Source: an uncultured virus (IMG/VR IMGVR_UViG_3300038704_000019) (Duplodnaviria > Heunggongvirae > Uroviricota > Caudoviricetes). Taken from it: a stretch of 22,410 nucleotides of DNA. The stretch is taken from positions 62,001-84,410 of the IMG/VR virus record IMGVR_UViG_3300038704_000019, one strand, 5' to 3'. Below the pieces are notes generated by a model, which saw only the letters and a program-made list of their open reading frames with translations, was not told the DNA's origin and ran no database searches. Both the position numbers and the translations under genes were made by a program. Positions 1,405-17,814 of the stretch are shown one piece after another (the first letter of the stretch is position 1; each line of letters starts with the position of its first letter).

Positions 1405-1426
1405 TCGTGACTTCATGCTGTCTGCA
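1405..1426 (+). promoter_or_regulatory. Putative phage late promoter, copy 2 (leaderless start)
   Basis: TCGTGAC TTC ATGCT GTCTGC ATG; 21 nt before ATG 1426; no SD. Confidence 0.7.
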
Positions 1427-4400
1427 TGAATATTCCAGACTTCACATCACTTACGCTTGCCAAGCAATCTGCTGAGTTGCTGGCGAAAGCTGAACATACC
1501 GATTTTCACCCAACGCCAGCACAAGCCGAGGCTGGCAATTACGCCAAGCGCAAAATGGCGTGGCATGGGCTGACTATCTCGATTGAGAACGAGCCCGGCT
1601 CTATCCGCAAAGGAAACGGGTGGCAAACCAAGATGGTTTTCCCATACGGGTACATCAATTCAACTGAGGGAAGCGACGGCGATCAGGTTGATGTGTACGT
1701 CGGGCCTGATGAGGATGCCGATACTGTCTATGTGGTTCATCAGCGCAAGTATGGCGACTGGGCGCACTACGATGAAGACAAGTGCATGTTGAACTTTGCA
1801 TCGGAAGATGATGCCCGCGCCGCTTATCTCAAGCACTATGATGACCCGCGTTTCCTTGGGCCGATCACCGCCATTCCAGTGGATGCCTTTGTCGAAAAAG
1901 CGAAGGCTGCTAATGGGCGGATGATTAAGTCGATCAGCCTGATTTTCCCAAATGGCAATCGCCACGAACTTACTGGTGTGCAGTTTTCATTCGTTGATGA
2001 CAACCTTCTGGTTAAGGCGCTTGCGCCTGGTCAACGCTGGATCACTGTTCACCCAAACGGCGCTGGCTCGACTGGTGTGCCCGTGATGGTGCAGGAGGCG
2101 CAGCATGGCTCGGGAGTATTTCACGTCATCGGCGGGGCCGGCGGCAAGCTGAACTACCTCAAGTTGCGCGGGCTTAAACCAGAGTCAAGCTACAAAGAGC
2201 ACGCAGCCGAAAATGCCAAGACCAAGCGTGATGCGAAAAAGCAACAGCGTGCGCGAGATAAAGAACTGGGTATCGATCACGGCAAAAAACAGGCGCGCGA
2301 GTCCGTGCAATCGCAAAGGCGAATGGCCGACAAGGCTTTCCTGCAAAAAGTTGCCGACAAGATGGGGTGGAAGGCGGAAGACCTTGAGCCAAAGATACCT
2401 GAAAACGTATCCGATGCCACAAAGCAAAAGATTGAACACCGCCACCATAGCGAACTACTGAAACGGGCTAATGCGGCTGTCGAGTTGCAGCATCAGAACT
2501 TGCTGACTGACGCTATGGCGCGCGAAGAAGCGGGCGGCGTATCGGTTGAGCCGAATGAGCATTCAGATTCTGCCAAACTCAATATTTCAGACTTGGATGA
2601 TGCGCACCCTCAGAGCATGAGCGGGCTTGGATTCTCAGCGCACTACGCGGAACGCGCTGCCGCCAACGGGGCAACGCCAGAGGAAATTCAGCAAGAGGCT
2701 GCAGGGAAGAAAGAATCAAGGCAGTCGATCATGTCGGAGGCGCAACGATCTGCGATTAAAGCGCGTGGCGATACTGCCCGTCAGATCAAGTCTGAGCTTG
2801 AGACGATTCGTGAACCAATAGCATCAAGCATCAAGGCTACGCTGGCATCCGCATCTGATGCAGTTGAACTCATCAAGGCACAAAAGGAATGGAAGGCAGT
2901 ACAAAAGGCCGCTCAGGCAGCGAACAAAGACATTGACGAGGCAAAAGAGGTCAAGGCGTACAACCTTGAGGTGTCCGCACCGGAAGATTCTGACATTCAG
3001 GCCGATATTGAGAATGACTTGCGCACCATCCGCACCAAGGCATTCCTGTCCACGATAGACAAAGAGGTGGACGAGCCAGAAAAGGCAATGCGCCGACATA
3101 TCGGTGCTGGCGCATTCAACTCGATCAACGCCTTGGCGCTTACTGCCGGTGGCGCTGCGCTGATAGACCGCTCTGTTGTCGATGTGCTTGGTGTTGAGGG
3201 GGCGGCGCAGGTATTGGCGCGCCGCTTGCACGCCGATTTACCAGCCGATGAGATGGACAAGTTGACGGCTGGCATGGAAGATTTTCACCTTCATCACTAT
3301 ATGGAAACCTCGAAAGAGGCCATGCAGGAAGCGCAAGAGTTACACGATGCTGCGAAGGAAATCGGGCTTGGAGAAGCCAGTCACGGCGCTGATTTTGAAG
3401 CGGCGCGAGAGTTCCTACATCGTCGAAAAGCGGCTGTTGAACAGGCGCACAAGATACTCGGGACGGCGCTGGGTGAAATGGAAGCCAATGCGGCGCTGGT
3501 CACGGCGCTCAAGGGCGGGCGCTCCGATAAGCCGATGGAAGTGCCGCTTGGCAAGGTGTCTGACGAAGATGCAATCAGGCAGGTGCGCGCCATCGGATTG
3601 CAGCGTGGCGATTACTCAATAGACCGGGTGGCCGGAAATCAGGTGTTGACCATTACGCCGGACGGATTAGACCGCTTGGCAAAGCCAGTTGATCGCGAAG
3701 AGCTTGACCGCACGCGAAATACGCTCGCCATCCTTAACGGTGAGCATGATGAGGATGACTGGTTGCCGCAAGGATTTGCGAAGCGGCCAGACTTGGCGTT
3801 GGACTTAAAGCCCGGCGTGGCCGCGACACTTGCCAGACCGTTCAAGCCATCAGGCGATATGCGGCAATCAATCAGGGATTACATCGGCGGTCGTGCGGCG
3901 GATGGCGATTCGCCTGATGCGATAGTCGAAGACTTGCAGTCGGCAGACTTTTTTCAGAAGTCGGGGAATGCGGAAGCCTATCGCGAAGCACTGGATGAAG
4001 TCGCGGCTCGTACTGACAAGGACGGCAAGCTACTGCGGAATGAAGACTTGGCTGGCGTGTTCAATGACTATGCCGATAGCTTTGTGCAGCGCGAGTACGG
4101 CGGAAAGATCGCGACCATACATCGGCAAAACTTCGAATCTGATGCTGTGGCGCAAGATGCACTGCACCGCGCGCTATCCGATACCCCGGAAGGTATAGCC
4201 GCATACAAGCCGATTGGCGAACTCACAACCGACGATCAACAGACATTGCGCAAGTTCTTTCATGCCAATGTGGCCCATGAGAGTGACGAGGCCGAGATAT
4301 TGCGCGAGCGCCTTGACGGCATGGCGCACATTGAGCCTGAAAAAGAAGTTCGGGATATGTTTGGCGAAACAACCTCAAACCCAGAATGGCAGGCATGGAA

Positions 4401-6534
4401 ATCCCAGCGTGACGCTCTGGCAGAAGAGGTGAATGCATCTTCCCTGACGTGGGCGAAGTATGCCGATGCCATGCACGGGCACGAAAATGCCTATGCGTCG
4501 GTGCAAGATTTAATCCGCTCGAAAGTTGGGCAGTCATTCCATGAGAATTACAACAAGCTCAATCCAAACGCGCCGCTGAAGCTGGGGCGGCAAGTGGTGC
4601 GCAACAACTTGAACCACCTGGACGCAGTTGACCCCAAGGCAAGGGTAGCCCGTGAAGCGAAAGAACGTGCATTGATCGACGGCCTGCGCGAGCGTAGCCA
4701 AGGGAAATATGCCGCCGGTAGTGTGAGTGACAAGCTCGATGCCGCGAGGGAAGAGCAGGAAGCGTTCAACCAGTCGCAAATGGGATTTTTCTCTACCGAG
4801 CAAGAGCCTGACATGTTTGGCGACACGCCTGCCAAGGCTGAAAAACCACTATCTTCCGATGAACGTTACACGTTAGGCCATGCTGCCGAGCGCACCATTG
4901 CGGCAATGATGCCCGTTGTCGGGCAAAACTTTAAGCCGGGACGCCCGCTGAAATTGTTCAGCCCAACGATGTCGGGCCCCGATGGGGTGATGCGACAACG
5001 GGCGATCAAGATCATTGAGAAAAACAAGCGTGTCGCGCTGGCGGCTGGTACCGGAGCCGGAAAAACGGCAATGATGCTTGGGGCATTCTCGCACCTGCAA
5101 TCTCAAGGCAAGGCAAAGCGCGGTCTATTCCTTGTTCCGTCAATTGTTCAAGGGCAGATCGGCGCTGAGGCGCTGCGCTTCATGGAGCCTGGCAAATATA
5201 GCTGGCACTGTGAGCCGGGCGCTTCGCGCGACGAGCGAATTGCCGCATACAAAGACCATAAGCATCACTTCACGGTTATGACGCACCAGTCTTTCCGCGA
5301 TGACATGCTCCACCTTGGCGCGCAACATACGGGCGTTGACGCGGCGTCGATGAGTGCGCGTCTTGAGGCAATGCAGCCAGAGCAGCGTAGCGCGTGGATG
5401 AAGGGAGTGATGGCAAAAGAGGGTATCAATTACGACTTTCTGGCTGCCGATGAAGCGCACAACACGCTCAATCGTGCGGGAAAAGAGAATTCCGCAATGG
5501 CGAATGTGGTTGATTCTGTGTCTGCCAATAGCGAGTTCTACATTCACAGCACCGCCGATGTAATCAAGAATGACCTATCCGAGGCGGCAGACATCATGAA
5601 AAAGATGGATCCCAAGCGTTACGGCGACACGGCGGCATTCATGCGCCGGTACGGCGTGAATACTCAAGGCGCGCAGGATGCGTTGAAGCGCGAGCTTATC
5701 CGGCATGTGTTGCCATTCAAGATTGAACCAAAGATACGTGCGGACAAGAAAGAGATTGCAGTAAAGCCAACTGAATCCCAAAACAAGGCGCTCTCTGATC
5801 TGGACAAGAATCTAGGCCGCGTGCGGATGGCGCGCATGGAGGGCAAGGTTGATGTCGAGGCGATGAAAGCAATCTCACCTGAGCACTTCAAAGATGCGCC
5901 TGAGTCTGAGCACGAGGCGATTGCCAAAGAGCTTTCATCCAGCATCGGCATTATCAAGGGCTCTGCTGTCCGGGCAATTCTTGATTCGAGCCCTGATTCG
6001 GCCAAGATTGATGCGCTTGCCAGCATCGCCAATGAGCGCAAGGGAAAGCCGGGCGTGGTATTCGCGCACTCATTGGAGGCGGTGCAGAACATCAAGGAGC
6101 GTCTCGAAAAAGATGGCCACCGCGTCATGACGCTGACTGGGGCCGATTCATCCGTCGATAAATCAGCCAAGATTCGCGGGTTCAATCCTGATAAGGGCGA
6201 CCGCACGCACGACATCATGGTTGCATCGGATGCTGGGGCAACCGGTGCGAACTTGCAGTCAGGCCAGTGGCTGACGCAGTTTGACAGTCCAATGACGGCC
6301 ATGACACATGCCCAACGCAATGGCCGTATCAATCGCATCGGACAACAGAACGATGTAGAGCTCATGGATTTGGTCGCCGATCATCCAAGTGAGCGCAATG
6401 CGCGGGAGCGTTTGAAAACAAAATACGCCTTGCGCGAGTTGATGAGCAGTTCATTCGAGGGGCTTGATGACACTGGTTTGGCGGCATTCTTGCATCAGCG
6501 CAAGGTGGCCCAAGCTAACGAGTCGCTTTTTTGA
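1426..6534 (+). CDS. Large polyvalent protein: N-terminal inorganic pyrophosphatase-like domain, long helical middle, C-terminal SNF2/SWI2-type SF2 helicase
   Basis: GNYAKRK..GLTISIEN..GS.RKG..YGYI..TEGSDGDQVDVYVGP..DEDKCML (phage polyvalent-protein InPase pattern, ~1510-1900); Walker A GTGAGKT, VPS, DEAH, GATGANLQ, QRNGRINRIGQ. Confidence 0.8.
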   Translation: MNIPDFTSLTLAKQSAELLAKAEHTDFHPTPAQAEAGNYAKRKMAWHGLTISIENEPGSIRKGNGWQTKMVFPYGYINSTEGSDGDQVDVYVGPDEDADTVYVVHQRKYGDWAHYDEDKCMLNFASEDDARAAYLKHYDDPRFLGPITAIPVDAFVEKAKAANGRMIKSISLIFPNGNRHELTGVQFSFVDDNLLVKALAPGQRWITVHPNGAGSTGVPVMVQEAQHGSGVFHVIGGAGGKLNYLKLRGLKPESSYKEHAAENAKTKRDAKKQQRARDKELGIDHGKKQARESVQSQRRMADKAFLQKVADKMGWKAEDLEPKIPENVSDATKQKIEHRHHSELLKRANAAVELQHQNLLTDAMAREEAGGVSVEPNEHSDSAKLNISDLDDAHPQSMSGLGFSAHYAERAAANGATPEEIQQEAAGKKESRQSIMSEAQRSAIKARGDTARQIKSELETIREPIASSIKATLASASDAVELIKAQKEWKAVQKAAQAANKDIDEAKEVKAYNLEVSAPEDSDIQADIENDLRTIRTKAFLSTIDKEVDEPEKAMRRHIGAGAFNSINALALTAGGAALIDRSVVDVLGVEGAAQVLARRLHADLPADEMDKLTAGMEDFHLHHYMETSKEAMQEAQELHDAAKEIGLGEASHGADFEAAREFLHRRKAAVEQAHKILGTALGEMEANAALVTALKGGRSDKPMEVPLGKVSDEDAIRQVRAIGLQRGDYSIDRVAGNQVLTITPDGLDRLAKPVDREELDRTRNTLAILNGEHDEDDWLPQGFAKRPDLALDLKPGVAATLARPFKPSGDMRQSIRDYIGGRAADGDSPDAIVEDLQSADFFQKSGNAEAYREALDEVAARTDKDGKLLRNEDLAGVFNDYADSFVQREYGGKIATIHRQNFESDAVAQDALHRALSDTPEGIAAYKPIGELTTDDQQTLRKFFHANVAHESDEAEILRERLDGMAHIEPEKEVRDMFGETTSNPEWQAWKSQRDALAEEVNASSLTWAKYADAMHGHENAYASVQDLIRSKVGQSFHENYNKLNPNAPLKLGRQVVRNNLNHLDAVDPKARVAREAKERALIDGLRERSQGKYAAGSVSDKLDAAREEQEAFNQSQMGFFSTEQEPDMFGDTPAKAEKPLSSDERYTLGHAAERTIAAMMPVVGQNFKPGRPLKLFSPTMSGPDGVMRQRAIKIIEKNKRVALAAGTGAGKTAMMLGAFSHLQSQGKAKRGLFLVPSIVQGQIGAEALRFMEPGKYSWHCEPGASRDERIAAYKDHKHHFTVMTHQSFRDDMLHLGAQHTGVDAASMSARLEAMQPEQRSAWMKGVMAKEGINYDFLAADEAHNTLNRAGKENSAMANVVDSVSANSEFYIHSTADVIKNDLSEAADIMKKMDPKRYGDTAAFMRRYGVNTQGAQDALKRELIRHVLPFKIEPKIRADKKEIAVKPTESQNKALSDLDKNLGRVRMARMEGKVDVEAMKAISPEHFKDAPESEHEAIAKELSSSIGIIKGSAVRAILDSSPDSAKIDALASIANERKGKPGVVFAHSLEAVQNIKERLEKDGHRVMTLTGADSSVDKSAKIRGFNPDKGDRTHDIMVASDAGATGANLQSGQWLTQFDSPMTAMTHAQRNGRINRIGQQNDVELMDLVADHPSERNARERLKTKYALRELMSSSFEGLDDTGLAAFLHQRKVAQANESLF

Positions 6535-6556
6535 TCGTGACGGGACAATAAAACAA
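6535..6556 (+). promoter_or_regulatory. Putative phage late promoter, copy 3 (leaderless start)
   Basis: TCGTGAC GGG ACAAT AAAACA ATG; fills the whole 21-nt gap between stop 6534 and ATG 6556. Confidence 0.7.
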
Positions 6557-8436
6557 TGGAAACGAAAATCTTATTTTTCAAGTCGCATGTCAGCGCCTAT
6601 GTAACGAAGAAAGGCGTGTTTGTGCCTGCGCATTTCAATAGGCGCACTAGCCGGGCGGACGATGATCGCACTGCCGATATGTTTGCGCGTAATGTTCCGC
6701 CGTCTCCCAAGCGAGATATTCCAGTTGCAGCCTTGGAAAGGCCGGAAGACTACACGCCGGATATGTTTAGCGGCGAAATGAAGTCTGAAATTAAGGCCGG
6801 CGAGCGTTCGGCAAAACAAGATGCGGACGAATTGCGAGACTATTTGAATTATGGCGATCTGCGGTCTGCAATTGACCAGCTAACCTACATGGATTACGAA
6901 AGGGCGAGAGAAGTTCTGTTGCGCGCAGGCTTTGCCATTCCGTCCCATAAAACAAAAAGTACACGCAGTCTGATAGTCAGCGTGCAAGATCAGCTTCTTC
7001 AAGCATCGAAACCGCGTGTTATGGTGAAATCAGCCAATCCGCGCATTCTTTTCCTGAAATCACACGTCAAGCAATACACCCGTAAGGATGGCACTGTCGT
7101 TGAAGAGCATGACGATAAGCGCATGAAACAGATGCAGGCAGCGCCCGCTGCGCGCCCGTCTGCCAAACAGCCACCACAGGAACCGACGGCGCGCGACGCC
7201 GAGGACGTTCGCGGTTCTGCACATGGCTACGGAACACACAATATCGAAGAGGGTGACACAATCCATTTCAAGGCTGGCGAGTTTTCCGGTGGCGGCAAGG
7301 TGAAAGCAATCGGCAAGGATGGCGCGCAGGTAGAGGATGCATCTGGCCGATTGCATAACGTGCATTGGCATGAAGTGACCGGATTCAAGGCTGATCGCGG
7401 CGACGGTGGCGGAAAGAAACCGCCCGGCGAAAACGGAAAGCCAGTTGCGGAAGGCGAAGAGCCGCCCAAAAATGATGAATCTAAAAAGCCGGTTGTGCTT
7501 GGCAAGCAAGAGCCTATTCCGGCTGAGTCATTCAATGCCACCGACTATGCAAAGTCGCACGATCAGGCTGACGTTTCGCCGGAAAGTATCATCGCTGAGT
7601 TCCCCCCAGACACGAAAGAGAAGATTACAGCGGCTCAAGATCGGCTGAAAAACATTGAGGAAACGCTTGATAAGTTCATGACCGATGGCAAGTGGACGCC
7701 GGAGCGGCAGGAACTTCACCGGAAAATCTTGTACGACGGCGTGATGGGCAAGGATGAAAATGGCAAGGACGTAAAAATACCGGGCTTGCTGTCACCCGAG
7801 AGAATCAAGGCGGCACGCCCTCCGCAGGGCGAACAGCCAGCTTTCATTATCCTTGGTGGTCGAGGCGGTTCTGGCAAGTCTTCATTCAAGGGCGAAGTGT
7901 ACGAGCCTGATCGCTGTATTGTGCTAGATGCCGATCACATCAAGTCAATGCTCCCAGAGTATGAAGGATGGAATGCGCACCAGGTACACGAGGAATCCGG
8001 CGAGCTTTTCGATCATGTCGCAGACTTCGCCCGCATCATGGGCTTGAACGTGGTTTTGGACAAAACCATGAAAACAGCCAAGTCGGCCATTGCCGATGTC
8101 GAGAAATTCAAGAAGTCTGGGTACCGGACGGAAGCGCACTACATGCACCTGCCAAGACAGGAGGCGGGTAAGCGCGCAGTGAAACGATTCCTCGATGGCG
8201 GAGAGTCTGGCCGCTTTGTGCCGCCTGAAATTGTGCTGTCGAACACTACTAATGAGGCCGCGTTCGATCAAGTCAGGAAGATGGTTGATGCATGGTCTTT
8301 CAGAGACAACAACGTGGCAAAGGGTGAAAAACCAATTCTGATTTCGCAAAGTGGTGAGCCCGCCATGAAGAGCAAGGAGATTTTGCGCAAGTCGTTGCTG
8401 AAGAGTATGATTGTGGTGTGGAGGGTAAAAAAATGA
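6556..8436 (+). CDS. Multidomain protein with C-terminal zeta-toxin-like P-loop kinase; N-terminal repeated KSHV..Y..K.G..V..H motifs and an SH3/KOW-like segment
   Basis: FIILGGRGGSGKS (P-loop 7855-7881), VLDADHIK, HEES, NVVLDKT, RAVKRF..GRFVP follow the zeta/PezT kinase pattern; IEEGDTIHF..GKVKAIGKDGAQVED..VHWHEV resembles a small beta-barrel. Confidence 0.72.
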   Translation: METKILFFKSHVSAYVTKKGVFVPAHFNRRTSRADDDRTADMFARNVPPSPKRDIPVAALERPEDYTPDMFSGEMKSEIKAGERSAKQDADELRDYLNYGDLRSAIDQLTYMDYERAREVLLRAGFAIPSHKTKSTRSLIVSVQDQLLQASKPRVMVKSANPRILFLKSHVKQYTRKDGTVVEEHDDKRMKQMQAAPAARPSAKQPPQEPTARDAEDVRGSAHGYGTHNIEEGDTIHFKAGEFSGGGKVKAIGKDGAQVEDASGRLHNVHWHEVTGFKADRGDGGGKKPPGENGKPVAEGEEPPKNDESKKPVVLGKQEPIPAESFNATDYAKSHDQADVSPESIIAEFPPDTKEKITAAQDRLKNIEETLDKFMTDGKWTPERQELHRKILYDGVMGKDENGKDVKIPGLLSPERIKAARPPQGEQPAFIILGGRGGSGKSSFKGEVYEPDRCIVLDADHIKSMLPEYEGWNAHQVHEESGELFDHVADFARIMGLNVVLDKTMKTAKSAIADVEKFKKSGYRTEAHYMHLPRQEAGKRAVKRFLDGGESGRFVPPEIVLSNTTNEAAFDQVRKMVDAWSFRDNNVAKGEKPILISQSGEPAMKSKEILRKSLLKSMIVVWRVKK

Positions 8437-8645
8437 GCGGCAAAAAACTGGATCCCAAGAACTACTGCGGCGGCAAAGCCCCCGAGTATGGCGGTGATGG
8501 GTACAGCGAAATTAGAAGCGATTGCGATTCTTCACCTGAGTATCTGAAAGAAAAGCAGGCAAGATTGCAGGATGCCCAAGATTCAGCGCCTGACTACATC
8601 AAGCAGGCTATCGCAGAAAGCCAAAAGCAAGCTCAACCCGCATAA
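8433..8645 (+). CDS. Small hypothetical protein (70 aa), translationally coupled to the kinase gene; candidate antitoxin or partner
   Basis: ATG 8433 overlaps the kinase stop (ATGA) with GGAGG at 8420-8424; better start than the 8418 call; no recognisable family. Confidence 0.65.
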   Translation: MSGKKLDPKNYCGGKAPEYGGDGYSEIRSDCDSSPEYLKEKQARLQDAQDSAPDYIKQAIAESQKQAQPA

Positions 8646-8647
8646 CT

Positions 8648-8667
8648 AAGCCGCCTTCGGGCGGCTT
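8648..8667 (+). terminator. GC-rich hairpin with C(UUCG)G tetraloop; weak terminator or RNA stability/processing element
   Basis: AAGCCGCC TTCG GGCGGCTT perfect 8-bp stem immediately after stop 8645; lacks a long U tract. Confidence 0.55.
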
Positions 8668-8687
8668 CGCATTTCTGGAAGCACACA

Positions 8688-9248
8688 ATGACCCCAAGAT
8701 TCACAAAAGCGTTAGCCGTTGCTGCCGAAGCCCACGAAGGGCAAGAGCGCAAAGGCACTGGCATCCCATATATCACTCACCCCGTCGCGGTCGCTGCGCT
8801 GGTAGCGCGCTATGGCGGCGATGAAGATCAGCAAATCGGCGCGTTGCTGCATGATGTTCTCGAAGATGCTGGCGAAGAGTGGGCCGTGCGTATCGCGGAA
8901 TTCGGTAATCGCGTATTGTCTATCGTTCGCGCCTGCACTGATGGTACGCCGGATGCCAAAACAGGGAAGAAAGCACCGTGGCGTGTTCGCAAGGAGGCAT
9001 ACTTGCCACATTTGGCAGAAACGCCTGACGATGCACTGCTGGTTTCGGCCTGTGACAAATTGCACAACATCCAGTCTATCCACCTTGATCTAGTCGAGGT
9101 AGGCACATCGGTATTTGACCGATTCACGGCGAGTCAGGATGAAACGCTGTGGTATTACCGTAGCCTGGCTGAAATTTTCACCGAGAGGCAAATAGCACCA
9201 GCGAGTGCGATTGTCCGCGAATACGAACAAATCATCTCCAAGTTATAA
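8688..9248 (+). CDS. HD-domain phosphohydrolase, MESH1/SpoT-hydrolase (small alarmone hydrolase) family
   Basis: AHEGQERKGTGIPYITHPVAVA, ALLHDVLED, VSACDKLHN are the canonical RelA/SpoT hydrolase motifs; no synthetase domain. Confidence 0.88.
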   Translation: MTPRFTKALAVAAEAHEGQERKGTGIPYITHPVAVAALVARYGGDEDQQIGALLHDVLEDAGEEWAVRIAEFGNRVLSIVRACTDGTPDAKTGKKAPWRVRKEAYLPHLAETPDDALLVSACDKLHNIQSIHLDLVEVGTSVFDRFTASQDETLWYYRSLAEIFTERQIAPASAIVREYEQIISKL

Positions 9249-9256
9249 CCGCTATG

Positions 9257-9278
9257 TCGTGATGTCACCATAAGGGGA
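9257..9278 (+). promoter_or_regulatory. Putative phage late promoter, copy 4 (variant TCGTGAT, leadered transcript)
   Basis: TCGTGAT GTC ACCAT AAGGGG A; same spacing, predicted +1 at A9278, 21 nt before ATG 9299. Confidence 0.55.
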
Positions 9279-9296
9279 ACCCCTTAGATGGTGACA
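9263..9296. repeat. Inverted repeat overlapping the promoter and leader of the DarB-like gene
   Basis: TGTCACCAT-AAGGGG-AA-CCCCTT-AG-ATGGTGACA; 15 complementary positions with a 2-nt bulge. Confidence 0.75.
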
Positions 9297-9298
9297 CC

Positions 9299-12200
9299 AT
9301 GCAAACCCTATTCTCGCGTCTCGGTGCCGTTCGGTGCCTATTCTTCAAGTCAGAGCAATTCCAGTTGATCGAGATGCCCGTGCAGGTCGGCGCATCGGTA
9401 GATAAGCGCGGGCATTTTACGCAGGCACACACTCGAATTCAGAAGGTACGCATTGAAAAGCCTGCGCAGCCAGATTTATTCGGCAACTCAGAAGAGCCCC
9501 AGAAGGACAAGCATTCAGCACGCCTAGAGGCTTTCATCATCAAGCATGGCGGGCTAGGCAGCCTCGCACACCTCATGTCTGGAATGACTGACGGCCAACA
9601 GCAACGCATTTTTGAGGAAATGGGAAAGCTGGGCGGAAAGTCTGTTGTTGAAGTCGCGGCGATGTTCGACAACATAAAGCCGGAGCCAGCGCCGCAAGCT
9701 GATCTATTTGCCGCACCGCAAAAACATGTTGATGAAATCGACACATCTGAAAAACATGTCGAAAAAAAGGCAGAAAACGAACATGTAGCACCTAGCCATG
9801 CCGGTGACATCGTTGTTCCGCACGCTATTGTTGGGCACATCACAGGCAGGGGTAAGACTTTGCGCGGGATTGTGCGTACTGACCTGACCAAAGATCAGGC
9901 GATGGAAATTGACCAGTACACATTCAAGAAAAATGGTGGTTGGTTCATCCGCGAAAAGCACCTCAAGCCCGGTGAAGTTGCTATTTCGAAGCCTGTTACC
10001 GCAGAGAATCCACAAAAAACCGTAGCAAAAGAGTCGAAGAGCCGCTACGAGCGCCTGTTAGAGCGCCGAACTGACGGCACGCCGGATGAAATGGCCGCCG
10101 AGGATGCGCGGATTTCTAATCTTGCATCTGTCCAGGTTGGCAATGTTGACGCATCGCTTCCTTTTGGGGTGCAGGCCGGCATCAGCAAGCAAGCCCGCCG
10201 TGACCTGAATACGCAAGCCGCCGCTATTGTAGCCCGTGGGGGCGAATACTCAGACGAAGACAAAGCGATTCTGCGCCAATACTCAGGCAATGGCGGCTGT
10301 GGCGATTCTCTGAATGAGTTCTACACCTTGCCAGAAGTGGCAAGTGCCATGTGGTTGGTCGCGCAGCGTCTCGGCGTGAAGGGTGAAGTGCTTGAGCCAT
10401 CCTGCGGCCCCGGTGTGTTTTTGCATACCGCGCCGGCAGATTCTAAAGTGACCGGTGTTGAAATGGACGAGACATCGGCCAAAATAGCCAAAGCGTTGCA
10501 TGGTGATCGCCATGAGATTGCAAATGCCAGCCTTGAGCGATTCGCCACTCAGGATGAGCGTCAATATGATGGCGTGCTGGGCAATGTGCCATTTGGACTA
10601 CGCGGGTCGCTGATTAAGGACGACAAGCCGAATTTGAAAACGGCGGATGCGTATTTCTGCGACACGGCGATGGATAAGTGCAAGTCCGGCGGTATTGTCG
10701 GCCTGATCGTGCCGACCGGCATCATGGATTCGCGCACAAATCGCAAGCTGCGTGAGGCGCTATTGCGCAAGGGGCAGTTCCTTGGTGCTCAGCGTATGCC
10801 GAATACTGCATTCGAGCATTCGCATACTGAGGTGACAACCGATGTGGTGTGGTTCCGCAAGTTTCCCGATGATGTGGCCGGCGCGCTGTCATCTTCCGCA
10901 GTCAAGCAAGATCACTTAAAAGCACTTGGCGTATGGGACGAAGAGTTCCTAGCTGGAAAATACTTCACCGGGCGCGGCGCGGAGAATGTGTTGGGCAAGA
11001 TGGGCGATGGTTGGCGCGCAAAGGCTGGCATGGGTGCGGACATTACTGTCGAAGGTTCCATGAGTGGCGTGCCAGAAGCGCTCGCTGAGTTTTCACCGGA
11101 AGACGGCAAGGAAATTCCGGCTGTAACTGACATTCTGACCGCTGTGGGTGGTGACGAGAAAGCACGTTCTATGGTGATGGGCGGTGCAATGAATCGCCCG
11201 TATGCGGATACTTCAAAGGTTGGCGATACCAAGACGGTGGACGGCGTAGTTTATGTGCTGCAGGGTAATCCGCCACGTTGGCATCGTATTGACGAGGTGC
11301 TGCAATCGGAAGCGTTGAAACAAGGGCAAGACATCGCCGCGCGGATTGATGCACTGATGGATGGCATGACTGCCGTTGATCGTTCGGCACTCGAAAAAGA
11401 CTTGCGGGAATGGGTTGAGGCGCACGGCATTCCATCGAAGAACAAGGACGTTTTGCTTGGTGCGCAGCAGGACAAGGTGCTGTACCGGTTGATCGGTGCT
11501 GTTAAATCGAATGGCGAACTCTCCGATGCGGTAACTGGCAAGGTGGCTAAACAGCAGATGGGCTCATTTGAGGCCACTGTTCAGTCATTACTTAATGACC
11601 ATGAGACTGTTGGTGTAGACAGGCTGGCAAAGGCGGCGGAGCTAGATAGAGAAGAGGCGCTAGACCAGCTTTATGGCTCCCCGAAGTACGCCATTGACCC
11701 AGTGACTGGAGAATGGACAACAAAAGACATCTACCTGTCCGGCGATCTGTGGGCTAAGGCAGATTTCGCGAAGGCGGCGCTGTCTGGCGAGGGATTGGCA
11801 CCTGAGCTACGCAAGAAGCTGGAACAGCAAGTAACTATGCTGACAGAAACAATCGCTCCTGTCTCATTGGAGGATGCATTTATCCAGGTGAACTCGGCTT
11901 TCTTGCCAACGTCAATTTTGTCTGCATTCCTGACATCAAGAAACCAGAACGGCAATAAGTGGCAGAAAGAGTTACCCCCGGTGGTTGTCACGTTTGAAGA
12001 TGGCGTTTACGCGATCACCGGTGGCAATGGATATGGCGAGCAATCGCACCTCGATAAGTACCTAAACCGCACCGGCCTGAGAAAAGACGATAAGCACATC
12101 ATTGATGACCTGAACGTGGAGTTCAAAGACTGGCTTTGCGCATCGCCGGAATACCGCGAAATAGCCGAAGACCTGTACAACAGAAAATTCAGGGGCTTCG

Positions 12201-15200
12201 CTGAACGGGAATTCTCGAATGAGCCTATGGATATTCCCGGTATGAATACCGAGGGATTGAAGGACTACCAGTGGGGCGGGCTGCGCTGGGCGCTGAACGC
12301 GGGCAAGGGAATCATTGCGGCTGATGTCGGGCTGGGTAAAACAGCACGGGCGCTCATGCTGGCACGCACGCTCAAAACGACTGGGCAGGCAAAACGCCCG
12401 ATGATCGTGGTGCCGAAGTCAGTTCTGGCCAACTGGTTCGATGAGTGCGAGAAATGGTTCCCAGGGAGCAAGGTGCTCACCATCGGCGGAAGCTTTGAAC
12501 GACTTGCTGATGGCTCTCTCAAAGGCAAGGATGACAATGCCGCTGAGCGCAAGCGCAAATACCATGATCTTCAGCAAAACGAATACGACTTCATCATTTG
12601 CAGCGAGCCGTCATTCGAGGAAATTGACCTAGACCCAATCACCAAGGGCGAATACAACAGCAAGGATTTCTGGGTGCAGCGTGGCGACAAGCTGGGCAAT
12701 GCTGGAGATAAGCGCGCCAAGCAGATCCGCGAAAGCTGGGAACAGGCGCGCGCGAGTCAGGAATTCGGGAAAGACTCTCGTACCGATGCGACGTACTTCA
12801 ACGGCCTCGGGGTGGACGCGCTGATTCATGATGAATTCCATCACCAAAAGAACCTGTGCGCGATCAAGTCGCGCTTTGGTGAGTCGCCCAAGTATCTGGG
12901 CGGTGGCGGGCTATCAATGCGTGCGCTTGATTTTAACCTCAAGGCGCGCTGGTTGCTCGATCAGCAAAATGGGAAGAACGTGTACGGATTAACGGCCACG
13001 CCAACCAAAAATAGCCCGATTGAGATTTACGCCATGCTGTCGCATGTCGCGCCGGAAGCATTCGAGAAGATCGGCGTGCGCAATAGCGAAGAGTTCCTTG
13101 ACCGATTTGCCAAGTTTGAAAATGGCATGGCGCTTGATACAGGCGGAAAGATGGAAGAGGCGCTGATTACTGCTGGCTTCCAAAATATGGATGAGCTCCG
13201 CGCGATCATGAAGCGCTATATCCATCGCCAAACTGCGGATGAGGTCGGATTGAAGCTGCCGGGGAGGCAGGATGTCACGCACATGGTTACGATGGATGCG
13301 GAGCAAGAATCTGCCTATTCAGAATTGCGCGAACTGGCGGCGGAAGCAAAAGGGAAAGATGCGACCGGAGACGCGCATATTTTCAGCATCATGGACAAGA
13401 TGAACAAGGCCGCTGTCGATCTATCCTTGCTTGACCCCGATTACGATGGAACAAAAAGCCCGAAATACATTACCTGCGCTCAGGAAATCATCAAGAATAT
13501 GAAGGATGGCGGACAGATTGTGTTCTCTGATTACGTCGATTCTCACGAAAAGATTGCCGCTGCGCTTGTTGCGTCCGGCATCCCGCGCAACCAGATCGGC
13601 ATCATCAATGCGCAAGTTGCATCTTCATCATCCAAGCGGCAAAGCATTTGCGATGCGTTCAACGCGCGCAAGCTGAAAGTAGTGATCGGCAACACGGCCA
13701 CGATGGGCGAGGGGCTGAACCTGCAAAAGGGCACTTCGGATATTCACCATCTCGACTTGCCGTGGGAGCCCGCATCCATGCAGCAACGAAATGGGCGTGG
13801 CTTACGCCAGGGCAATACAAACGAGGGCGTTAGAGTTCACGCATATCTGGCAAAAGGTAGCTTCGACGGCTATCGGTTGCAGGCGATATTAGCCAAGAAG
13901 GACTGGCAGGATGCCGTCTGGAAGGGTGGCAACGAAGTGGAAAACATGAACCAGCAGGGGAATGTGAGCCGCGATGAAATGATGATTATGCTGGCAGCCG
14001 ACCCAGACCAAGCGCGCGAAGCATTCGAGGCTAATCACAAAGCCAAGGAAGAGCGCCTAGTCGCCGGAAGGACGGCTGAGGCATCGCAGCGCTTTGTGAA
14101 ATTCCAAGAGGTCAAGCGTAGCTACGCCTCCCTGAAAAACAAGGATACGCAGAGCGCGGCACGACTCAAAGCCAAGCTGGACAAAGAATACTCGGCGCTC
14201 AAAGCGGATAAGTATTTCACTGCGAAACAGGCGCTGGATTCAGATACGCCAGTGATTGTCGCCAGCACTGGAACGATGATGTACGCTGGCGCAGGCATTG
14301 AAGTTACTGATGGCGATAAGGTTGCAAGGTATGTGGTCGAAGGCGTTGACCCACGTAAGCAGCAAGTAGCGATGCGCTTGTATGGTCAGGAAATGCCAGT
14401 CCGCATGACGATGGACATAAAGGACATGCCGAAACCCAAGGCATTCGCCTATGACGAAAAGGCGGAAACGGAAGAAATCAGCCGCAAGATTGCTGAAAAG
14501 CCACTGGAAATTAAGCAAGTAAGCGATGTGATGAAATTGCCTCCATCGGTGATCTCGGCAAACCATGACAAGCTGCAAAGCCAACTGTGGGACGGATTGA
14601 GAAATTACAAGGTCAGCGCCGGTCATGGCAGCGTTGCGCTGATAGACAAAGTTACAGGGCAGCCGGTAATTGTTCCCAGCCATGAAGTCAGCGGCAACAG
14701 CAAGGGATATGGGCCAGATACGCATGACTTCATGCTGCCGACCGAAGAGAACAAGCAGAAAGCAATTCAGGCGTGGATGGATGCTGAGCGGGCGGCCTCG
14801 TTTGGCACTGATACCGCAAGCGTTGGGCGTCGTGGCGGAAAGACCGTAACGCGCGCCAAGCGCAAATATGGGTTCGGTGTAGATGGGAACAACAATCCGT
14901 GGACACGCATCATTGGCGACTTGAGCGGGAAGTATTCTGGCGGTGGGTATTACTATGGAGATGGTGACTCTCCCGAGGTTAAGCCGATTCGCCAAAAGCT
15001 GATCGCAGAGCAAAACGAGCGCATCCGCCATGCAAAAACATTCTCCGAGGCGCTTGATGCTGCCGCTCCATTGGGTGAGATTCAAGATGCCGACAAAGGG
15101 TATGGCGCGCGGGTTAAGCTCCCAAAGAAAGCGATTGCCGCACTTTGGGCGAAGGCGCGGCACCTTGACGTGCTGGGTGGTGCTATCGATACACATGAGC

Positions 15201-15619
15201 CAAAATCAGAATCGTATGGCGGTAAATACGGCAAGCACAGCAACTATTTCCTTGGAGATAAGGCAAAGTCGGTTCATGCCGCTATTCTTGGGCTTGCTGC
15301 GAGTGCCGGGCATGACGATCTCGTACATGCGATGGTTGAATCCGGTTTGCGGCATCACAAAGATGGAAAGCATGAAGAGGCGCTGCAGGCAATTGCCAAC
15401 GGCTATGAGCATAGACCTGCAAGGATACGCGCTATGCAGAAGCTGGCCGGCGCGGCGGGTTTGTTAGATAAAAAGCGCGGTGATATTCAGGGTTATGGCA
15501 ATCTTTCAGCCTCACAAGGATATTACTCTTCACAAGAAGACAAGAGCCAGACGGTGGGTGACAGGCTTAATGAATTGCTTGCAGCAAGCCAGAAAATTTA
15601 CGATAAGGAACCCGCATGA
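9299..15619 (+). CDS. DarB-like polyvalent protein: N6-adenine methyltransferase plus SNF2-type helicase (putative virion-borne antirestriction protein)
   Basis: MTase motifs EFYT, VLEPSCGPG, VTGVEMD, GNVPFG, F....V.TDVVWFRK; helicase motifs LKDYQ, DVGLGKT, VVPKS, DEFHHQKN, LTATPTKNS, MGEGLNLQ, QRNGRGLRQGN; architecture like P1 DarB. Confidence 0.85.
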   Translation: MQTLFSRLGAVRCLFFKSEQFQLIEMPVQVGASVDKRGHFTQAHTRIQKVRIEKPAQPDLFGNSEEPQKDKHSARLEAFIIKHGGLGSLAHLMSGMTDGQQQRIFEEMGKLGGKSVVEVAAMFDNIKPEPAPQADLFAAPQKHVDEIDTSEKHVEKKAENEHVAPSHAGDIVVPHAIVGHITGRGKTLRGIVRTDLTKDQAMEIDQYTFKKNGGWFIREKHLKPGEVAISKPVTAENPQKTVAKESKSRYERLLERRTDGTPDEMAAEDARISNLASVQVGNVDASLPFGVQAGISKQARRDLNTQAAAIVARGGEYSDEDKAILRQYSGNGGCGDSLNEFYTLPEVASAMWLVAQRLGVKGEVLEPSCGPGVFLHTAPADSKVTGVEMDETSAKIAKALHGDRHEIANASLERFATQDERQYDGVLGNVPFGLRGSLIKDDKPNLKTADAYFCDTAMDKCKSGGIVGLIVPTGIMDSRTNRKLREALLRKGQFLGAQRMPNTAFEHSHTEVTTDVVWFRKFPDDVAGALSSSAVKQDHLKALGVWDEEFLAGKYFTGRGAENVLGKMGDGWRAKAGMGADITVEGSMSGVPEALAEFSPEDGKEIPAVTDILTAVGGDEKARSMVMGGAMNRPYADTSKVGDTKTVDGVVYVLQGNPPRWHRIDEVLQSEALKQGQDIAARIDALMDGMTAVDRSALEKDLREWVEAHGIPSKNKDVLLGAQQDKVLYRLIGAVKSNGELSDAVTGKVAKQQMGSFEATVQSLLNDHETVGVDRLAKAAELDREEALDQLYGSPKYAIDPVTGEWTTKDIYLSGDLWAKADFAKAALSGEGLAPELRKKLEQQVTMLTETIAPVSLEDAFIQVNSAFLPTSILSAFLTSRNQNGNKWQKELPPVVVTFEDGVYAITGGNGYGEQSHLDKYLNRTGLRKDDKHIIDDLNVEFKDWLCASPEYREIAEDLYNRKFRGFAEREFSNEPMDIPGMNTEGLKDYQWGGLRWALNAGKGIIAADVGLGKTARALMLARTLKTTGQAKRPMIVVPKSVLANWFDECEKWFPGSKVLTIGGSFERLADGSLKGKDDNAAERKRKYHDLQQNEYDFIICSEPSFEEIDLDPITKGEYNSKDFWVQRGDKLGNAGDKRAKQIRESWEQARASQEFGKDSRTDATYFNGLGVDALIHDEFHHQKNLCAIKSRFGESPKYLGGGGLSMRALDFNLKARWLLDQQNGKNVYGLTATPTKNSPIEIYAMLSHVAPEAFEKIGVRNSEEFLDRFAKFENGMALDTGGKMEEALITAGFQNMDELRAIMKRYIHRQTADEVGLKLPGRQDVTHMVTMDAEQESAYSELRELAAEAKGKDATGDAHIFSIMDKMNKAAVDLSLLDPDYDGTKSPKYITCAQEIIKNMKDGGQIVFSDYVDSHEKIAAALVASGIPRNQIGIINAQVASSSSKRQSICDAFNARKLKVVIGNTATMGEGLNLQKGTSDIHHLDLPWEPASMQQRNGRGLRQGNTNEGVRVHAYLAKGSFDGYRLQAILAKKDWQDAVWKGGNEVENMNQQGNVSRDEMMIMLAADPDQAREAFEANHKAKEERLVAGRTAEASQRFVKFQEVKRSYASLKNKDTQSAARLKAKLDKEYSALKADKYFTAKQALDSDTPVIVASTGTMMYAGAGIEVTDGDKVARYVVEGVDPRKQQVAMRLYGQEMPVRMTMDIKDMPKPKAFAYDEKAETEEISRKIAEKPLEIKQVSDVMKLPPSVISANHDKLQSQLWDGLRNYKVSAGHGSVALIDKVTGQPVIVPSHEVSGNSKGYGPDTHDFMLPTEENKQKAIQAWMDAERAASFGTDTASVGRRGGKTVTRAKRKYGFGVDGNNNPWTRIIGDLSGKYSGGGYYYGDGDSPEVKPIRQKLIAEQNERIRHAKTFSEALDAAAPLGEIQDADKGYGARVKLPKKAIAALWAKARHLDVLGGAIDTHEPKSESYGGKYGKHSNYFLGDKAKSVHAAILGLAASAGHDDLVHAMVESGLRHHKDGKHEEALQAIANGYEHRPARIRAMQKLAGAAGLLDKKRGDIQGYGNLSASQGYYSSQEDKSQTVGDRLNELLAASQKIYDKEPA

Positions 15620-16196: not shown

Positions 16197-16226
16197 CGGC
16201 TATATGTTGTATGCGAATAGCAGACG

Positions 16227-16250
16227 AACCCGCTTCGGCGGGTTTTTTGT
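16227..16250 (+). terminator. Rho-independent terminator
   Basis: AACCCGC TTCG GCGGGTT followed by TTTTGT. Confidence 0.85.
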
Positions 16251-16261
16251 TGCTGTATGTG

Positions 16262-16283: not shown

Positions 16284-17161
16284 TGATAGATGCCGCCAAC
16301 AATACAGACGACTTTGTTTCATTCCAGTCGTTCCTTAAAGCAACCCCAGTCGAAGAGTCCGGGGAGCGCTTCATTTACATTGAGGCCAGCAACGAAGGGA
16401 TTGACCTGCAAGGTGAGAAGGTTCTATCCGAAGCACTTGCGGATAGCAAAGATTACTACTTGCGCTACGGGAACATCGACATAGATCACTTCTCGATCAT
16501 TGGGGCAAAGGCGGGGATTCAAAATCCGCTGCAATACGAAATTGGGAGGCCCGTCGATGTCCGCATTGAAAACCGCCATACGTTCGTCAAGGCCCAGCTC
16601 TACAAGGGCGATTCTGAATTAGCCAAGAACGCAAACATGGTGTGGGAGTCGATGACCAAGATTTCACCGCCAAAGCGTTGGTATCCGTCCGTAGGAGGTT
16701 CTGCGCCGGTCAAGGTGCAAGAGTTTGATCCAGAGTCATGCAGCAAGGTCACGGTGGTCAAATCTGTGCGCTGGACAAATATCGGACTTAGCCAAACGCC
16801 GGTCAATCAACACGTCCCAACGGCCTCGGCTTCGCCAATTGGCACGTTCTGCAAATCACTAAATGCATTCACCCTGAACAAGGCGCTTGAAGCCAGCTAT
16901 GCCACTGATGCCACCGCCATGACTGGTGGTGCTGCATTTGGGATGCAGTCACTTGATACCGGCATTCACAGCTACTTTGATTTCCGCGAGCGTATCTCAG
17001 AAGCAATTCGCGGGCGAAAAGTTGGTCGTGACATTACAAATTACGCTATTCGCACGTTCGGTTTATCCCATGAACAGGCTTCTGATTGGGTAGAGCGCTT
17101 CTTGCGAGGGATTAAACAGTCGGCTGCTACAAGCATCCATTTTAAGGAGAGAAGTAAATGA
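16283..17161 (+). CDS. Prohead (capsid maturation) protease
   Basis: EASNEGIDLQGEKV, NIDIDH (candidate catalytic His), EIGRP, PSVGG (candidate catalytic Ser), TPVN; HK97/herpes-assemblin-type pattern; two genes upstream of the capsid gene. Confidence 0.78.
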   Translation: MIDAANNTDDFVSFQSFLKATPVEESGERFIYIEASNEGIDLQGEKVLSEALADSKDYYLRYGNIDIDHFSIIGAKAGIQNPLQYEIGRPVDVRIENRHTFVKAQLYKGDSELAKNANMVWESMTKISPPKRWYPSVGGSAPVKVQEFDPESCSKVTVVKSVRWTNIGLSQTPVNQHVPTASASPIGTFCKSLNAFTLNKALEASYATDATAMTGGAAFGMQSLDTGIHSYFDFRERISEAIRGRKVGRDITNYAIRTFGLSHEQASDWVERFLRGIKQSAATSIHFKERSK

Positions 17162-17814
17162 GCTACGAAAAACTGCTGGACGACCTTGAGACGCTGCAAA
17201 AGAGCTATGCCGCCGAAGAGGACGACAAAAAGATTCAAGCTGCTGCTGCCGCAGCGGCGGGCGCTGATGATGGCGCAAAGAAAAAAGAGGGCGATGAAGA
17301 AGAGCTGGATGAAAACGGCAATCCGATTGCCAAGCCAGCAGCCAAGAAAGAAGGCGAAGAGGGCGCGCCAATGGCAAAGTCTTTCATCGTCACTACTGCC
17401 GATGGCGAGAAGCATGAGGCTATTGACGGTACCGAGATGATTAAGTCGCTTAGCGACCAGGTTGAAGCCCTGCAAAAAAGTGCCGAATCCGAAAAAACTG
17501 ATCTCACCAAATCGTTGACCATTTTGGCTGATGTAATCAAGAGCCAAGGCTCCTTGATTAAGTCGCTCAACGAAAAGGTTGAAATTCTCTCCAATCAGGG
17601 TGCTGGCCGCAAGTCTGTTACGACTCCGACACCGGCCATGATGAAGAGCCTGCAAAACGAACAGCCACTGGATGCGCAAGGTTTCATGCTCAAAGCGAAT
17701 GCCGCTTTCGATGCTGGCCGCATCACTGGCAAAGACTTGACGGTTTGCGACGTGGCGTTGCGCATGGGATCAGTGCTTGACCAGAACCTCGTCAACAAGG
17801 TTTTGGGCGAGTAA
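17158..17814 (+). CDS. Putative capsid scaffolding protein
   Basis: Between protease and capsid; acidic low-complexity N-half, coiled-coil middle, eight [LMV]-x-K-S motifs; strong SD TAAGGAG and ATGA overlap. Confidence 0.68.
   Translation: MSYEKLLDDLETLQKSYAAEEDDKKIQAAAAAAAGADDGAKKKEGDEEELDENGNPIAKPAAKKEGEEGAPMAKSFIVTTADGEKHEAIDGTEMIKSLSDQVEALQKSAESEKTDLTKSLTILADVIKSQGSLIKSLNEKVEILSNQGAGRKSVTTPTPAMMKSLQNEQPLDAQGFMLKANAAFDAGRITGKDLTVCDVALRMGSVLDQNLVNKVLGE

Follow-up and report, generated by a model that had tools for sequence, protein, structure and literature searches.

Accessory enzymes among the head genes of an uncultured phage probably carry the lysine-type cut signal of its SPO1-type head

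The prohead protease of phage T4, gp21, cuts after Glu, and the cut site of the giant phages of the SPN3US and phiKZ type is likewise of the Glu type. T4 cargo proteins are loaded into the prohead, trimmed and ejected, and their leader, which can be moved to foreign proteins, is packaging signal and cut site at once (PMC9024508, citing Mullaney and Black). In the giant phages, according to the abstracts of reports on SPN3US gp245 and phiKZ gp175, one head protease cleaves packaged and ejected proteins together with the capsid protein (PMC10052503, PMC7411985). For phage P1, DarB and Ulx are reported to be virion proteins (PMC9024508, PMC11437467), the first 30 residues of DarB are enough to bring a reporter into the capsid, and the capsid protein is cut between E120 and S121 (PMC9024508). 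The polyvalent proteins of Iyer, Burroughs, Anand, de Souza and Aravind (2017, PMC5512222) were predicted to be packaged and injected, and their processing was proposed to occur through their own MPTase peptidase domains. Here, we describe the final 22.4 kb (22,410 nucleotides, hereafter the window) of the complete 84,410-bp genome, with direct terminal repeats, of an uncultured phage (IMG/VR record IMGVR_UViG_3300038704_000019, positions 62,001 to 84,410), in which a block of enzyme genes stands amid the genes for the head. With a probability of about 0.6, we believe that these accessory enzymes carry the cut signal of the head protease, are loaded into the prohead, are trimmed there and are delivered with the DNA.

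The arrangement can be read as a variant of the T4 capsid-targeting system with specificity for Lys, used on polyvalent proteins, and three features distinguish it from the known systems: a site of the Lys type in an SPO1-type head, a portable tag that is long and conserved, and the placing of the signal at seams inside multi-enzyme giants. As in the T4 proteins IPI-III and Alt, substrates of gp21, otherwise unrelated proteins carry a short N-terminal leader that closes with the protease motif. Unlike in T4, the cut is predicted to fall after Lys, the leader is not T4-related and accompanies an SPO1-type head, many leaders run on into a conserved core of ~25 residues, which the mature protein would retain, and the predicted signal also joins domains inside giant multi-enzyme proteins. 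The locus is predicted to work like the T4 system, but it is not a member by descent. The giant phages have a T4-like head, in contrast, and no shared portable enzyme tag is described in the abstracts of PMC10052503 and PMC7411985. With the polyvalent proteins the window shares multi-enzyme giants encoded near MuF or head genes, where the described repertoire includes InPase, zeta kinase, RelA/SpoT-HD, ART, ParB and PBECR domains; here, the product of gene g2 (Table 1) combines InPase with an SF2 helicase, that of g5 combines a methylase with an SNF2 helicase, and the gene for a MuF-like protein lies directly upstream of g2. Literature searches and a text search of PMC5512222, as distinct from full readings, yielded no paper describing the tag or such processing; in the text of PMC5512222, the words "leader" and "linker" do not occur and "prohead" occurs once, in the reference list.

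By homology and gene order, the window covers the head region of a complete phage genome whose head module is of the SPO1 type. The capsid protein shares 60-71% identity with its counterparts in Aeromonas phage ST4, Pseudomonas phage Dolphis and Yersinia phage fHe-Yen8-01, is ~31-35% identical to Thermus phage capsid proteins and, by tblastn, distantly but clearly related to the capsid proteins of the SPO1 group and of Staphylococcus phages. Among known structures it matches PDB 9vel (Gp6.1) with E 9e-23, gene 6.1 being annotated in the SPO1 record as the major head protein, and 5lii and 9row with E 3-5e-9. The Herelleviridae (SPO1, phage K/phi812) have a homologue of this capsid protein and show the same order of portal, protease, scaffold and capsid genes, as well as repeated scaffold sites and a site ahead of the mature capsid protein.

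The initial annotation had interpreted a short motif, hydrophobic-x-K-[SA], as the processing site of the prohead protease. In this lineage the motif behaves as such a site, being repeated and conserved in position in scaffolds down to those of SPO1 and phage K. Most likely, judging from these sequences, the protease cuts after Lys in hydrophobic(P3)-x-K/[SA], where the slash marks the cut. The scaffolds of nine relatives, some of them only 29-39% identical to that of the window, contain 6-8 sites each, and 15 scaffolds including that of SPO1 contain 6-13 each; when these are pooled, 102 of 119 sites have L or M at P3, and at P1' 96 sites have S and 23 have A. In an alignment of nine scaffolds (35-89% identity), K15, K74-S75, K96-S97, K118, K163-S164 and K179 are invariant, and these Lys (+Ser) columns are among the few invariant positions. 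A candidate propeptide of the capsid protein comprises residues 1-37 (nucleotides (nt) 17864-17974) and would end at L-Q-K37/A38, with K37 invariant in nine sequences down to 28% identity. SPO1 has 11 scaffold sites, A-L-N-K/A-L-E-A in the capsid protein, and further sites in protease and portal, while phage K has seven scaffold sites and V-V-K24/S25 in the capsid protein. The PDB chain 9row (439 residues) aligns 24 residues into the 463-residue 5lii, whose displayed sequence is that of phage K; we take both entries to be of the phage phi812/K type. This offset of 24 residues indicates that the deposited chain begins at S25, directly after the Lys. The capsid protein of Listeria phage A511 is also said to be cut between Lys and Ser. 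Maturation by a cut after Lys and before Ser or Ala is suggested by the start of 9row at Ser25, in a capsid protein of the phage K type and not of this phage, and by the conservation of the site. We found no published cut site or virion proteome for fHe-Yen8-01, SPO1, A511, PHB04 or Mecenats66.

Other head proteins of the lineage carry the motif at conserved places. The protease has candidate self-cuts at K19/A20, K191/S192 and K200/A201, kept in 8 of 8 relatives, and its residues 198-237 (nt 16874-16993) resemble residues 35-75 of the capsid protein (nt 17966-18088; 20 of 41 positions identical, 49%, E 5e-7), that is, the capsid cut site and the first mature residues (N-arm). The SPO1 protease has a similar segment, and in other virus records it gives rise to a second "capsid" match. 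This segment may be the route by which the protease is built into the prohead. In homologues of the MuF-like protein, hydrophobic-x-K-[AS] lies at residues 22-35 in 5 of 5 cases (L010, Dolphis, fHe-Yen8-01, PHB04, ST4). The portals of the lineage (genome positions 57191-59014 for this phage, compared with L012, L013, L015 and L018) have a conserved hydrophobic-x-K-[AS] ~50 residues behind the N-terminus and a further one 12-25 residues ahead of the C-terminus, which in this phage read D-M-N-K/S and P-L-A-K/S. The conservation near both ends suggests that the portal is trimmed at both.

A check of translations and positions located every motif listed in the initial annotation where it had been placed: LLAKA (nt 1477), MIKS (1921) and LLVKA (2005) in g2; ILFFKS (6568), VMVKS (7018), ILFLKS (7045) and MKS..LRKS.LLKS (8365-8406) in g3; CLFFKS (9335) in g5; MHKA in the MuF-like protein; ELQKA at residues 34-38 of the capsid protein; and FLKA, FCKS and LNKA in the protease. 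To obtain expected numbers, we used 2000 composition-preserving shuffles per protein. The scaffold has eight [LMV]xKS motifs compared to 0.29 expected, a number reached in 0 of 2000 shuffles, and across versions of the motif it has 8-9 sites compared to 0.3-1.2 expected. Hydrophobic-x-K-[SA] occurs five times in the protease (0.88 expected; 0/2000 shuffles) and six times in g3 (2.08 expected, p = 0.017), where the Lys-Ser dipeptide occurs 13 times (3.9 expected; 0/2000 shuffles). The motif falls within the first 60 residues in 9 of the 10 open reading frames (ORFs) from the MuF-like to the capsid gene, compared to 13 of 95 elsewhere (Fisher p = 1.5e-6), and after removal of protease, scaffold and capsid protein it does so in 6 of 7 (p = 1.2e-4). 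The ORF set for this test consisted of crude longest-ORF calls on the 84-kb genome, with an antisense ORF taking the place of g7. The signal in the cargo proteins is one of position and conservation, at N-termini and domain seams, and not of total count.

Comparison of relatives shows that the 14-kb enzyme block between the minor head and protease genes, to which the annotation had drawn attention, is an accessory insert. It is absent from that place in Dolphis, fHe-Yen8-01 and ST4, where the protease gene comes almost immediately after the MuF-like gene; in the relatives L003, L004 and L010 and in Bordetella phage PHB04, genes of these kinds stand there in other combinations and orders. A scan of genomic contigs found three loci, all on contigs of proteobacterial metagenome-assembled genomes (MAGs), one of which, from a Propionivibrio MAG, is a close copy of the block. 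In ST4, likely cargo genes are located upstream of the terminase gene (L018 1-1658) and not between the MuF-like and protease genes; they encode a giant ADP-ribosyltransferase, a NUDIX protein with the tag described below, and a protein annotated as "RE endonuclease".

The N-terminal and seam sites of the block are conserved in relatives at 45-70% identity and coincide there with gene borders. The g2 product matches InPase (PF18823, 7e-40) at residues 32-158, the Pfam domains ResIII, DEAD and Helicase_C, and phrog_62 (3e-173). In PHB04, InPase is a separate 169-residue protein with both border sites, V-V-L-L-K/A at the start and M-I-K/A at the end, and the helicase, also separate, starts with M-K-P-I-L-F-L-K/A and continues into R-W-I-T-V-H-P-N-G as in g2. 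The g2 homologue of L010 is without InPase and starts with M-P-K-F-P-T-L-L-I-K/A, equivalent to the K197 leader of g2. At the C-terminus of g3, L-[RK]-K-S-L is kept in three of the four sequences compared, g3 of the window included. The g5 product matches N6_Mtase, SNF2-rel_dom and Helicase_C in Pfam and phrog_10089 ("DarB-like", 4e-115), and its PHB04 homologue starts with M-I-I-L-L-T-K/A and keeps a core V-x-K-D-G-T-V-V-x-x-H. InPase and zeta domains match PHROGs annotated as minor head or virion proteins. In the close relative L002 (62-3979), a stop codon divides the DarB-like gene into two frames, of 1223 and 80 codons, maybe through a sequencing error or as a pseudogene.

The shared-motif signal proposed in the initial annotation is real, but its decisive element is a longer conserved tag that had been missed. 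The tag, ~30 residues long, consists of 3-4 hydrophobic residues and K-[SA], followed by H-[VI]-x-x-[YF]-T-R-K-D-G-x-x-V-x-x-H-[DE]-D-K-R. In addition to the two copies in g3, copies start two small proteins of L004, the NUDIX hydrolase (ST4, L033) and the HD hydrolase of PHB04, a g4 homologue with the full tag at its N-terminus, and diverged copies start g5 and the DarB-like protein of PHB04. The tag is without a Pfam model, tag-bearing N-termini giving nothing relevant against Pfam at E ≤ 10, and the ESM Atlas gave no usable match for it. A profile built from four copies was searched against 1.84 billion representative proteins and matched 588 clusters at E ≤ 1e-3, 128 of them at E ≤ 1e-10. 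The best 150 tagged proteins hold 211 copies; 109 of the 150 have a copy in the first 12 residues, and 53 carry two to four copies. Around the Lys of 204 tags, 193 have L, F or M at P3, and P1' is occupied by S in 152, by A in 44 and by T in 8, which at the level of sequence matches the pooled scaffold sites; P2' is His in 189, compared to Leu, Gln or Asn in the scaffold. As in g3, internal copies often have a second hydrophobic-x-K-[SA] 4-22 residues upstream (54 of 105, most often at 10-11 residues; ~6% expected, a rough estimate from the shuffle background).

The same leader or tag fronts unrelated domains, including InPase, helicase, HD, NUDIX, DarB-like, zeta-kinase, ART, ParB and Acb1. 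At a cut-off of 1e-5, Pfam recognises domains in 23 of the 75 longest tagged proteins: InPase (12), ddrB-ParB (4), ART-PolyVal (3), DUF6900 (3), Zeta_toxin (2), PBECR3 (2), Acb1 (1) and LPD3 (1), a repertoire that is the one described for polyvalent proteins by Iyer et al. (2017, PMC5512222). Of 12 InPase domains from tagged proteins, 11 have hydrophobic-x-K-[SA], mostly as M-I-K-[SA], no more than ~25 residues behind them. One metagenomic protein (P0019, 1098 residues) has an Acb1 anti-CBASS phosphodiesterase directly behind an N-terminal tag and another tag around residue 930; provided that the tag stands for packaging, this would be a pre-packaged anti-CBASS enzyme. Among cultured phages, tblastn with a 37-residue tag found only Pseudomonas putida phage Dolphis, with a tag at about 83.7 kb, and Jeremy, and since the copies in PHB04 and ST4 were found by eye, this count of tagged phages is a lower bound. 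The leaders of small proteins, M-x-x-F-D-L-L-K/S, resemble scaffold N-termini (F-D-E-L-L-K/S in L010, F-D-K-L-M in others), and AlphaFold2 models tag residues 3-14 as a helix with modest confidence. From this likeness, the leader may work by imitating the N-terminal helix of the scaffold, as the C-terminal segment of the protease imitates the N-arm of the capsid protein.

The tag and the head type occur together. We checked 15 tag-bearing IMG/VR records for the capsid protein and found matches in 12, of which 11 are capsid homologues (27-86% identity) and one is only the capsid-like segment of the protease at a contig end. The three records with no match are 13%, 23% and 60% complete, whereas all six records that are at least 90% complete have this head type. 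In the most distant records (capsid protein 27-28% identical), the capsid N-terminus and the putative scaffold keep Lys-Ser/Ala sites, the scaffold with 13 sites in a search that also allowed Thr at P1'. Five complete genomes have 2-4 tag matches each.

Homologues of both giants, g2 and g5, have been reported from virions. For Thermus phage Lalka27a, a 2026 preprint reports the DarB homologue Gp2 as a minor component of purified virions, by sodium dodecyl sulfate polyacrylamide gel electrophoresis and peptide mass fingerprinting, as well as a 1715-residue "large virionic helicase", Lvh, in purified virions. The g5 product matches Gp2 (BLASTP E 5e-62), and g2 matches Lvh over nearly its full length, with 38% identity across 735 residues (E 6e-129) and 26% across another 826. 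Lvh has another N-domain of 73 residues, followed by A-L-L-A-K82/A and R-W-I-T-V-H-P-N-G as in g2, and the 13-residue leader of Gp2 ends in L-L-A-K13/A14, resembling the g2 leader and the N-terminal site of several scaffolds. The assignment of g5 as a DarB homologue followed by an Ulx-like gene comes from BLASTP to P1 DarB (1.2e-64) and, for g6, from phrog_1629. BLASTP of g6 against P1 Ulx gave no match at 1e-3, so that the relation to Ulx comes from the profile alone. For P1 DarA, DdrA and DdrB, no BLASTP match was found among the 15 proteins of the window (Hdf was not queried, and the rest of the genome was not searched). The window and the P1 Dar system thus share a DarB giant with N6-methyltransferase and helicase, which in P1 carries a signal for packaging at its N-terminus, and an Ulx-like neighbour; unlike P1 DarB, g5 has ~285 extra N-terminal residues, and the head genes of P1 have another organisation. 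The first 20 residues of g5 (9299-9360) and of P1 DarB (L016 2470-9237, minus strand) both contain G-[AV]-[VF]-R-C near residue 10; the stretch lies inside the P1 packaging region, is too short for a homology call and does not occur in PHB04.

From the motif statistics, conservation, modular architecture, homologies and tag-head association described above, we infer cleavage, packaging, injection and the biochemical roles of the enzymes in this phage as follows. The protease would break down the scaffold by cuts at about nine places, take 37 residues off the capsid protein, and trim itself, the portal and the MuF-like protein. The block would be swappable cargo of the polyvalent type, comprising the InPase-helicase, the zeta-like kinase, the HD hydrolase, and the DarB-like methylase-helicase with its Ulx-like partner. 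On this cargo the cut signal would come either as a short hydrophobic leader or within the ~30-residue portable tag, and leader or tag would bring the precursor into the assembling prohead. The protease would then remove the leaders and separate modules, such as InPase from helicase and the two halves of g3 from one another. The mature enzymes would stay in the head, enter the host with the DNA and act there against restriction and nucleotide-based defences. Since the enzymes appear to bear the cut signal of the phage's own head protease, loading into the capsid, trimming and delivery with the DNA are the probable outcome. The packaged-cargo interpretation of the initial annotation is thereby partly supported, through the behaviour of the site, the accessory nature of the block, the DarB identity of g5 and the virion homologues in Lalka27a, while the motif counts of the giants and some of the individual sites do not stand.

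A number of observations weigh against this interpretation. By the shuffles, enrichment over background holds for scaffold, protease and g3 but not for the giants g2 (8 motifs, 5.35 expected, p = 0.16) and g5 (6 motifs, 6.79 expected, p = 0.69) as whole proteins, which indicates that most of their internal motifs are probably not sites. Two N-terminal candidates were rejected as confident sites: FVKA of the Ulx-like protein, which reads LIKE in PHB04, and FTKA of the HD protein (residues 5-8), which lies at the start of the HD_4 match (residues 8-131). Both are probably chance or structural matches, and some of the sites that had been listed or implied are thus probably due to chance; the g4 product here, moreover, is without a tag and has only this F-T-K/A. 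The 588 tag clusters are proteins without genomic context, and 52 of the 75 scanned proteins are without a known domain. The virus records were reached by DNA patterns from the tags of this lineage, which biases the co-occurrence test toward relatives, and they include near-duplicates (G003/G009, G004/G010, G002/G008). An AlphaFold2 model of a tagged 100-residue protein (mean predicted local distance difference test score (pLDDT) 57, helix at residues 3-14) was uninformative on site accessibility. In P1, the sole Dar system dissected experimentally, the capsid protein is cut after Glu, and the Dar proteins are described as having no leader consensus (PMC9024508). Finally, a strong hairpin resembling a terminator (Table 1) separates the block from the protease operon, so that the accessory block may be transcribed as a separate unit.

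These points bear differently on three other explanations. We consider it unlikely, though worth weighing, that the enzymes are packaged while the tag only docks, K-S-H contacting a head protein without being cut at K/S, so that only the sites in scaffold, capsid protein and protease, and perhaps the spacer sites upstream of tags, are cleaved. Because K-S-H lies inside a strongly conserved tag, its conservation could serve binding and not cutting; the tag is indeed conserved beyond the need of a cut site, with K, S/A, H, G, V and H invariant, and its P2' His departs from the residues found in scaffold sites. For P1 DarB, packaged via its N-terminal signal, PMC9024508 is cited for no cleavage having been reported, whereas the same source describes the T4 sequence as signal and cut site together. 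The docking explanation is also opposed by the agreement of the tag with the P3/P1/P1' rule of the scaffold, and by the leaders without tag core (InPase and helicase of PHB04, L003 and L010), which end in K/[AS] before different domains.

It is improbable, in our assessment, that the block is not virion cargo and instead encodes intracellular anti-defence and nucleotide-metabolism enzymes in the late region, the tag being a small module that binds, for example, nucleic acid or a host factor. The hairpin ahead of the protease gene would fit such a block, as would the basic core of the tag (R-K ... K-R), for which AlphaFold2 gave no confident fold, and the many tagged proteins with no recognisable domain. 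However, the proteins reported from Lalka27a virions include homologues of g2 and g5, DarB and Ulx of P1 are virion proteins (PMC9024508, PMC11437467), InPase and zeta domains match PHROGs of minor head or virion proteins, the tag is mostly N-terminal with internal copies paired with a second site, and it co-occurs with one head type. Coincidence of a four-residue motif in the non-structural proteins, with real sites in structural proteins only, is already disfavoured and very improbable. It would account for the background totals of g2 and g5, for the presence of the motif early in 13 of 95 unrelated ORFs and for the lack of conservation of the Ulx-like match in PHB04, but not for the positional enrichment that persists without the structural proteins, for N-terminal and seam sites kept at 45-70% identity and in Lalka27a, or for a tag family of 588 clusters.

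The preferred explanation, loading of the enzymes and their trimming by the head protease, could be extended, and here our confidence falls somewhat short of even odds: SPO1-type heads may share the tag as a universal and portable code, "load and cut", by which whatever enzyme bears it would enter the prohead, the giants may be polyproteins cut at seams that the tag marks, and first-strike enzymes may be exchanged between phages of this lineage. Tagged enzymes with Acb1-like, NUDIX, HD, InPase, ART, ParB-nuclease, zeta-kinase or DarB domains would then be delivered before any phage gene is expressed. If true, a sequence rule would predict capsid-carried proteins across a large phage group, and these would be the ones at work within seconds of the start of infection, countering restriction, CBASS-type signalling and other defences. 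Polyvalent proteins would be recast as protease-processed polyproteins, explaining the activation of the giants that was attributed in 2017 to their own peptidase domains (PMC5512222). The tag would also offer a compact handle by which foreign proteins could be loaded into SPO1-type heads, a use to which the T4 and P1 signals are already put.

The features of the window are listed in Table 1; the genes of interest are all on the + strand.

Table 1. Genes, candidate cut sites and tag copies in the window (nt positions within the window; a slash marks a candidate cut; aa, amino acids)
Feature	Position	Strand	Evidence or remark
MuF-like minor head protein, 385 aa	228..1385	+	phrog_581 1.8e-5; Pfam Phage_min_cap2 under cut-off
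Candidate site M-H-K27/A28, MuF-like protein	300-311	+	
g2, 1702 aa: leader, InPase, spacer, large SF2 helicase body	1426..6534	+	Pfam, PHROGs
g2 candidate cut K21/A22 (LLAKA), before InPase	1477-1491	+	
g2 candidate cut K168/S169 (MIKS), just after InPase	1921-1932	+	
g2 candidate cut K197/A198 (LLVKA), before helicase-opening R-W-I-T-V-H-P-N-G	2005-2019	+	
g3, 626 aa, zeta-toxin-like kinase domain at residues 421-566	6556..8436	+	Pfam Zeta_toxin 1e-23
g3 tag copy 1	6556-6663	+	tag profile E 1e-23
g3 candidate site VMVK/S, residues 155-159	7018-7032	+	
g3 tag copy 2, leader at residues 164-169	7036-7146	+	tag profile E 9e-23
g3 C-terminal K-S cluster	8365-8406	+	
g4, 186 aa, HD_4 (RelA/SpoT-type) phosphohydrolase	8688..9248	+	Pfam HD_4 9e-20
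g5, 2106 aa, DarB-like N6-methyltransferase and SNF2 helicase	9299..15619	+	Pfam, PHROG
g5 diverged tag, residues 1-50, candidate cut K17/S18	9299-9448	+	
g6, 112 aa, Ulx-like; overlaps g5 stop codon	15616..15954	+	phrog_1629 "Ulx-like anti-restriction" 1.1e-9
g7, 80 aa	15954..16196	+	homologues beside protease gene in relatives L001-L005, L009
Terminator-like hairpin and T-tract, gap between accessory block and protease gene	16226..16255	+	8-bp stem, 5 G-C pairs
Prohead protease, 292 aa	16283..17161	+	phrog_1028 6e-29
Scaffolding protein, 218 aa, nine hydrophobic-x-K-[SA] sites	17158..17814	+	
Major capsid protein, 501 aa	17864..19369	+	phrog_752 7e-88

The product of g7 gave no family match in the Pfam or PHROG comparison, and the hairpin proper, between g7 and the protease gene, spans 16226-16245. 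Terminase and portal genes are located just upstream of the window, and neck and tail genes 3' of the capsid gene. After the latter, a gene at 21891-22295 of the window encodes a DUF6527 protein (Pfam 5e-11; phrog_3362). Between the portal and MuF-like genes (genome 60564-62000) lies a gene for a 478-residue right-handed beta-helix protein (Pfam Beta_helix 7e-12), an unusual location, among head genes, for a depolymerase-like protein of this kind. The gene after the portal gene (genome 59011-59817) encodes an N-terminal His/Gly-rich motif, Y-x-H-x-x-x-G-x-x-x-G-x-V-x-x-x-G-K-H-G, that is common to this phage, PHB04 (L015 11122-12603) and L010 (771-1085); the PHB04 and L010 versions of the protein have a K-[AS] site near the C-terminus. 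In two related virus records, the capsid gene match (G003:C1:31741-33159 and G009:C1:19654-21072) holds one in-frame TGA.

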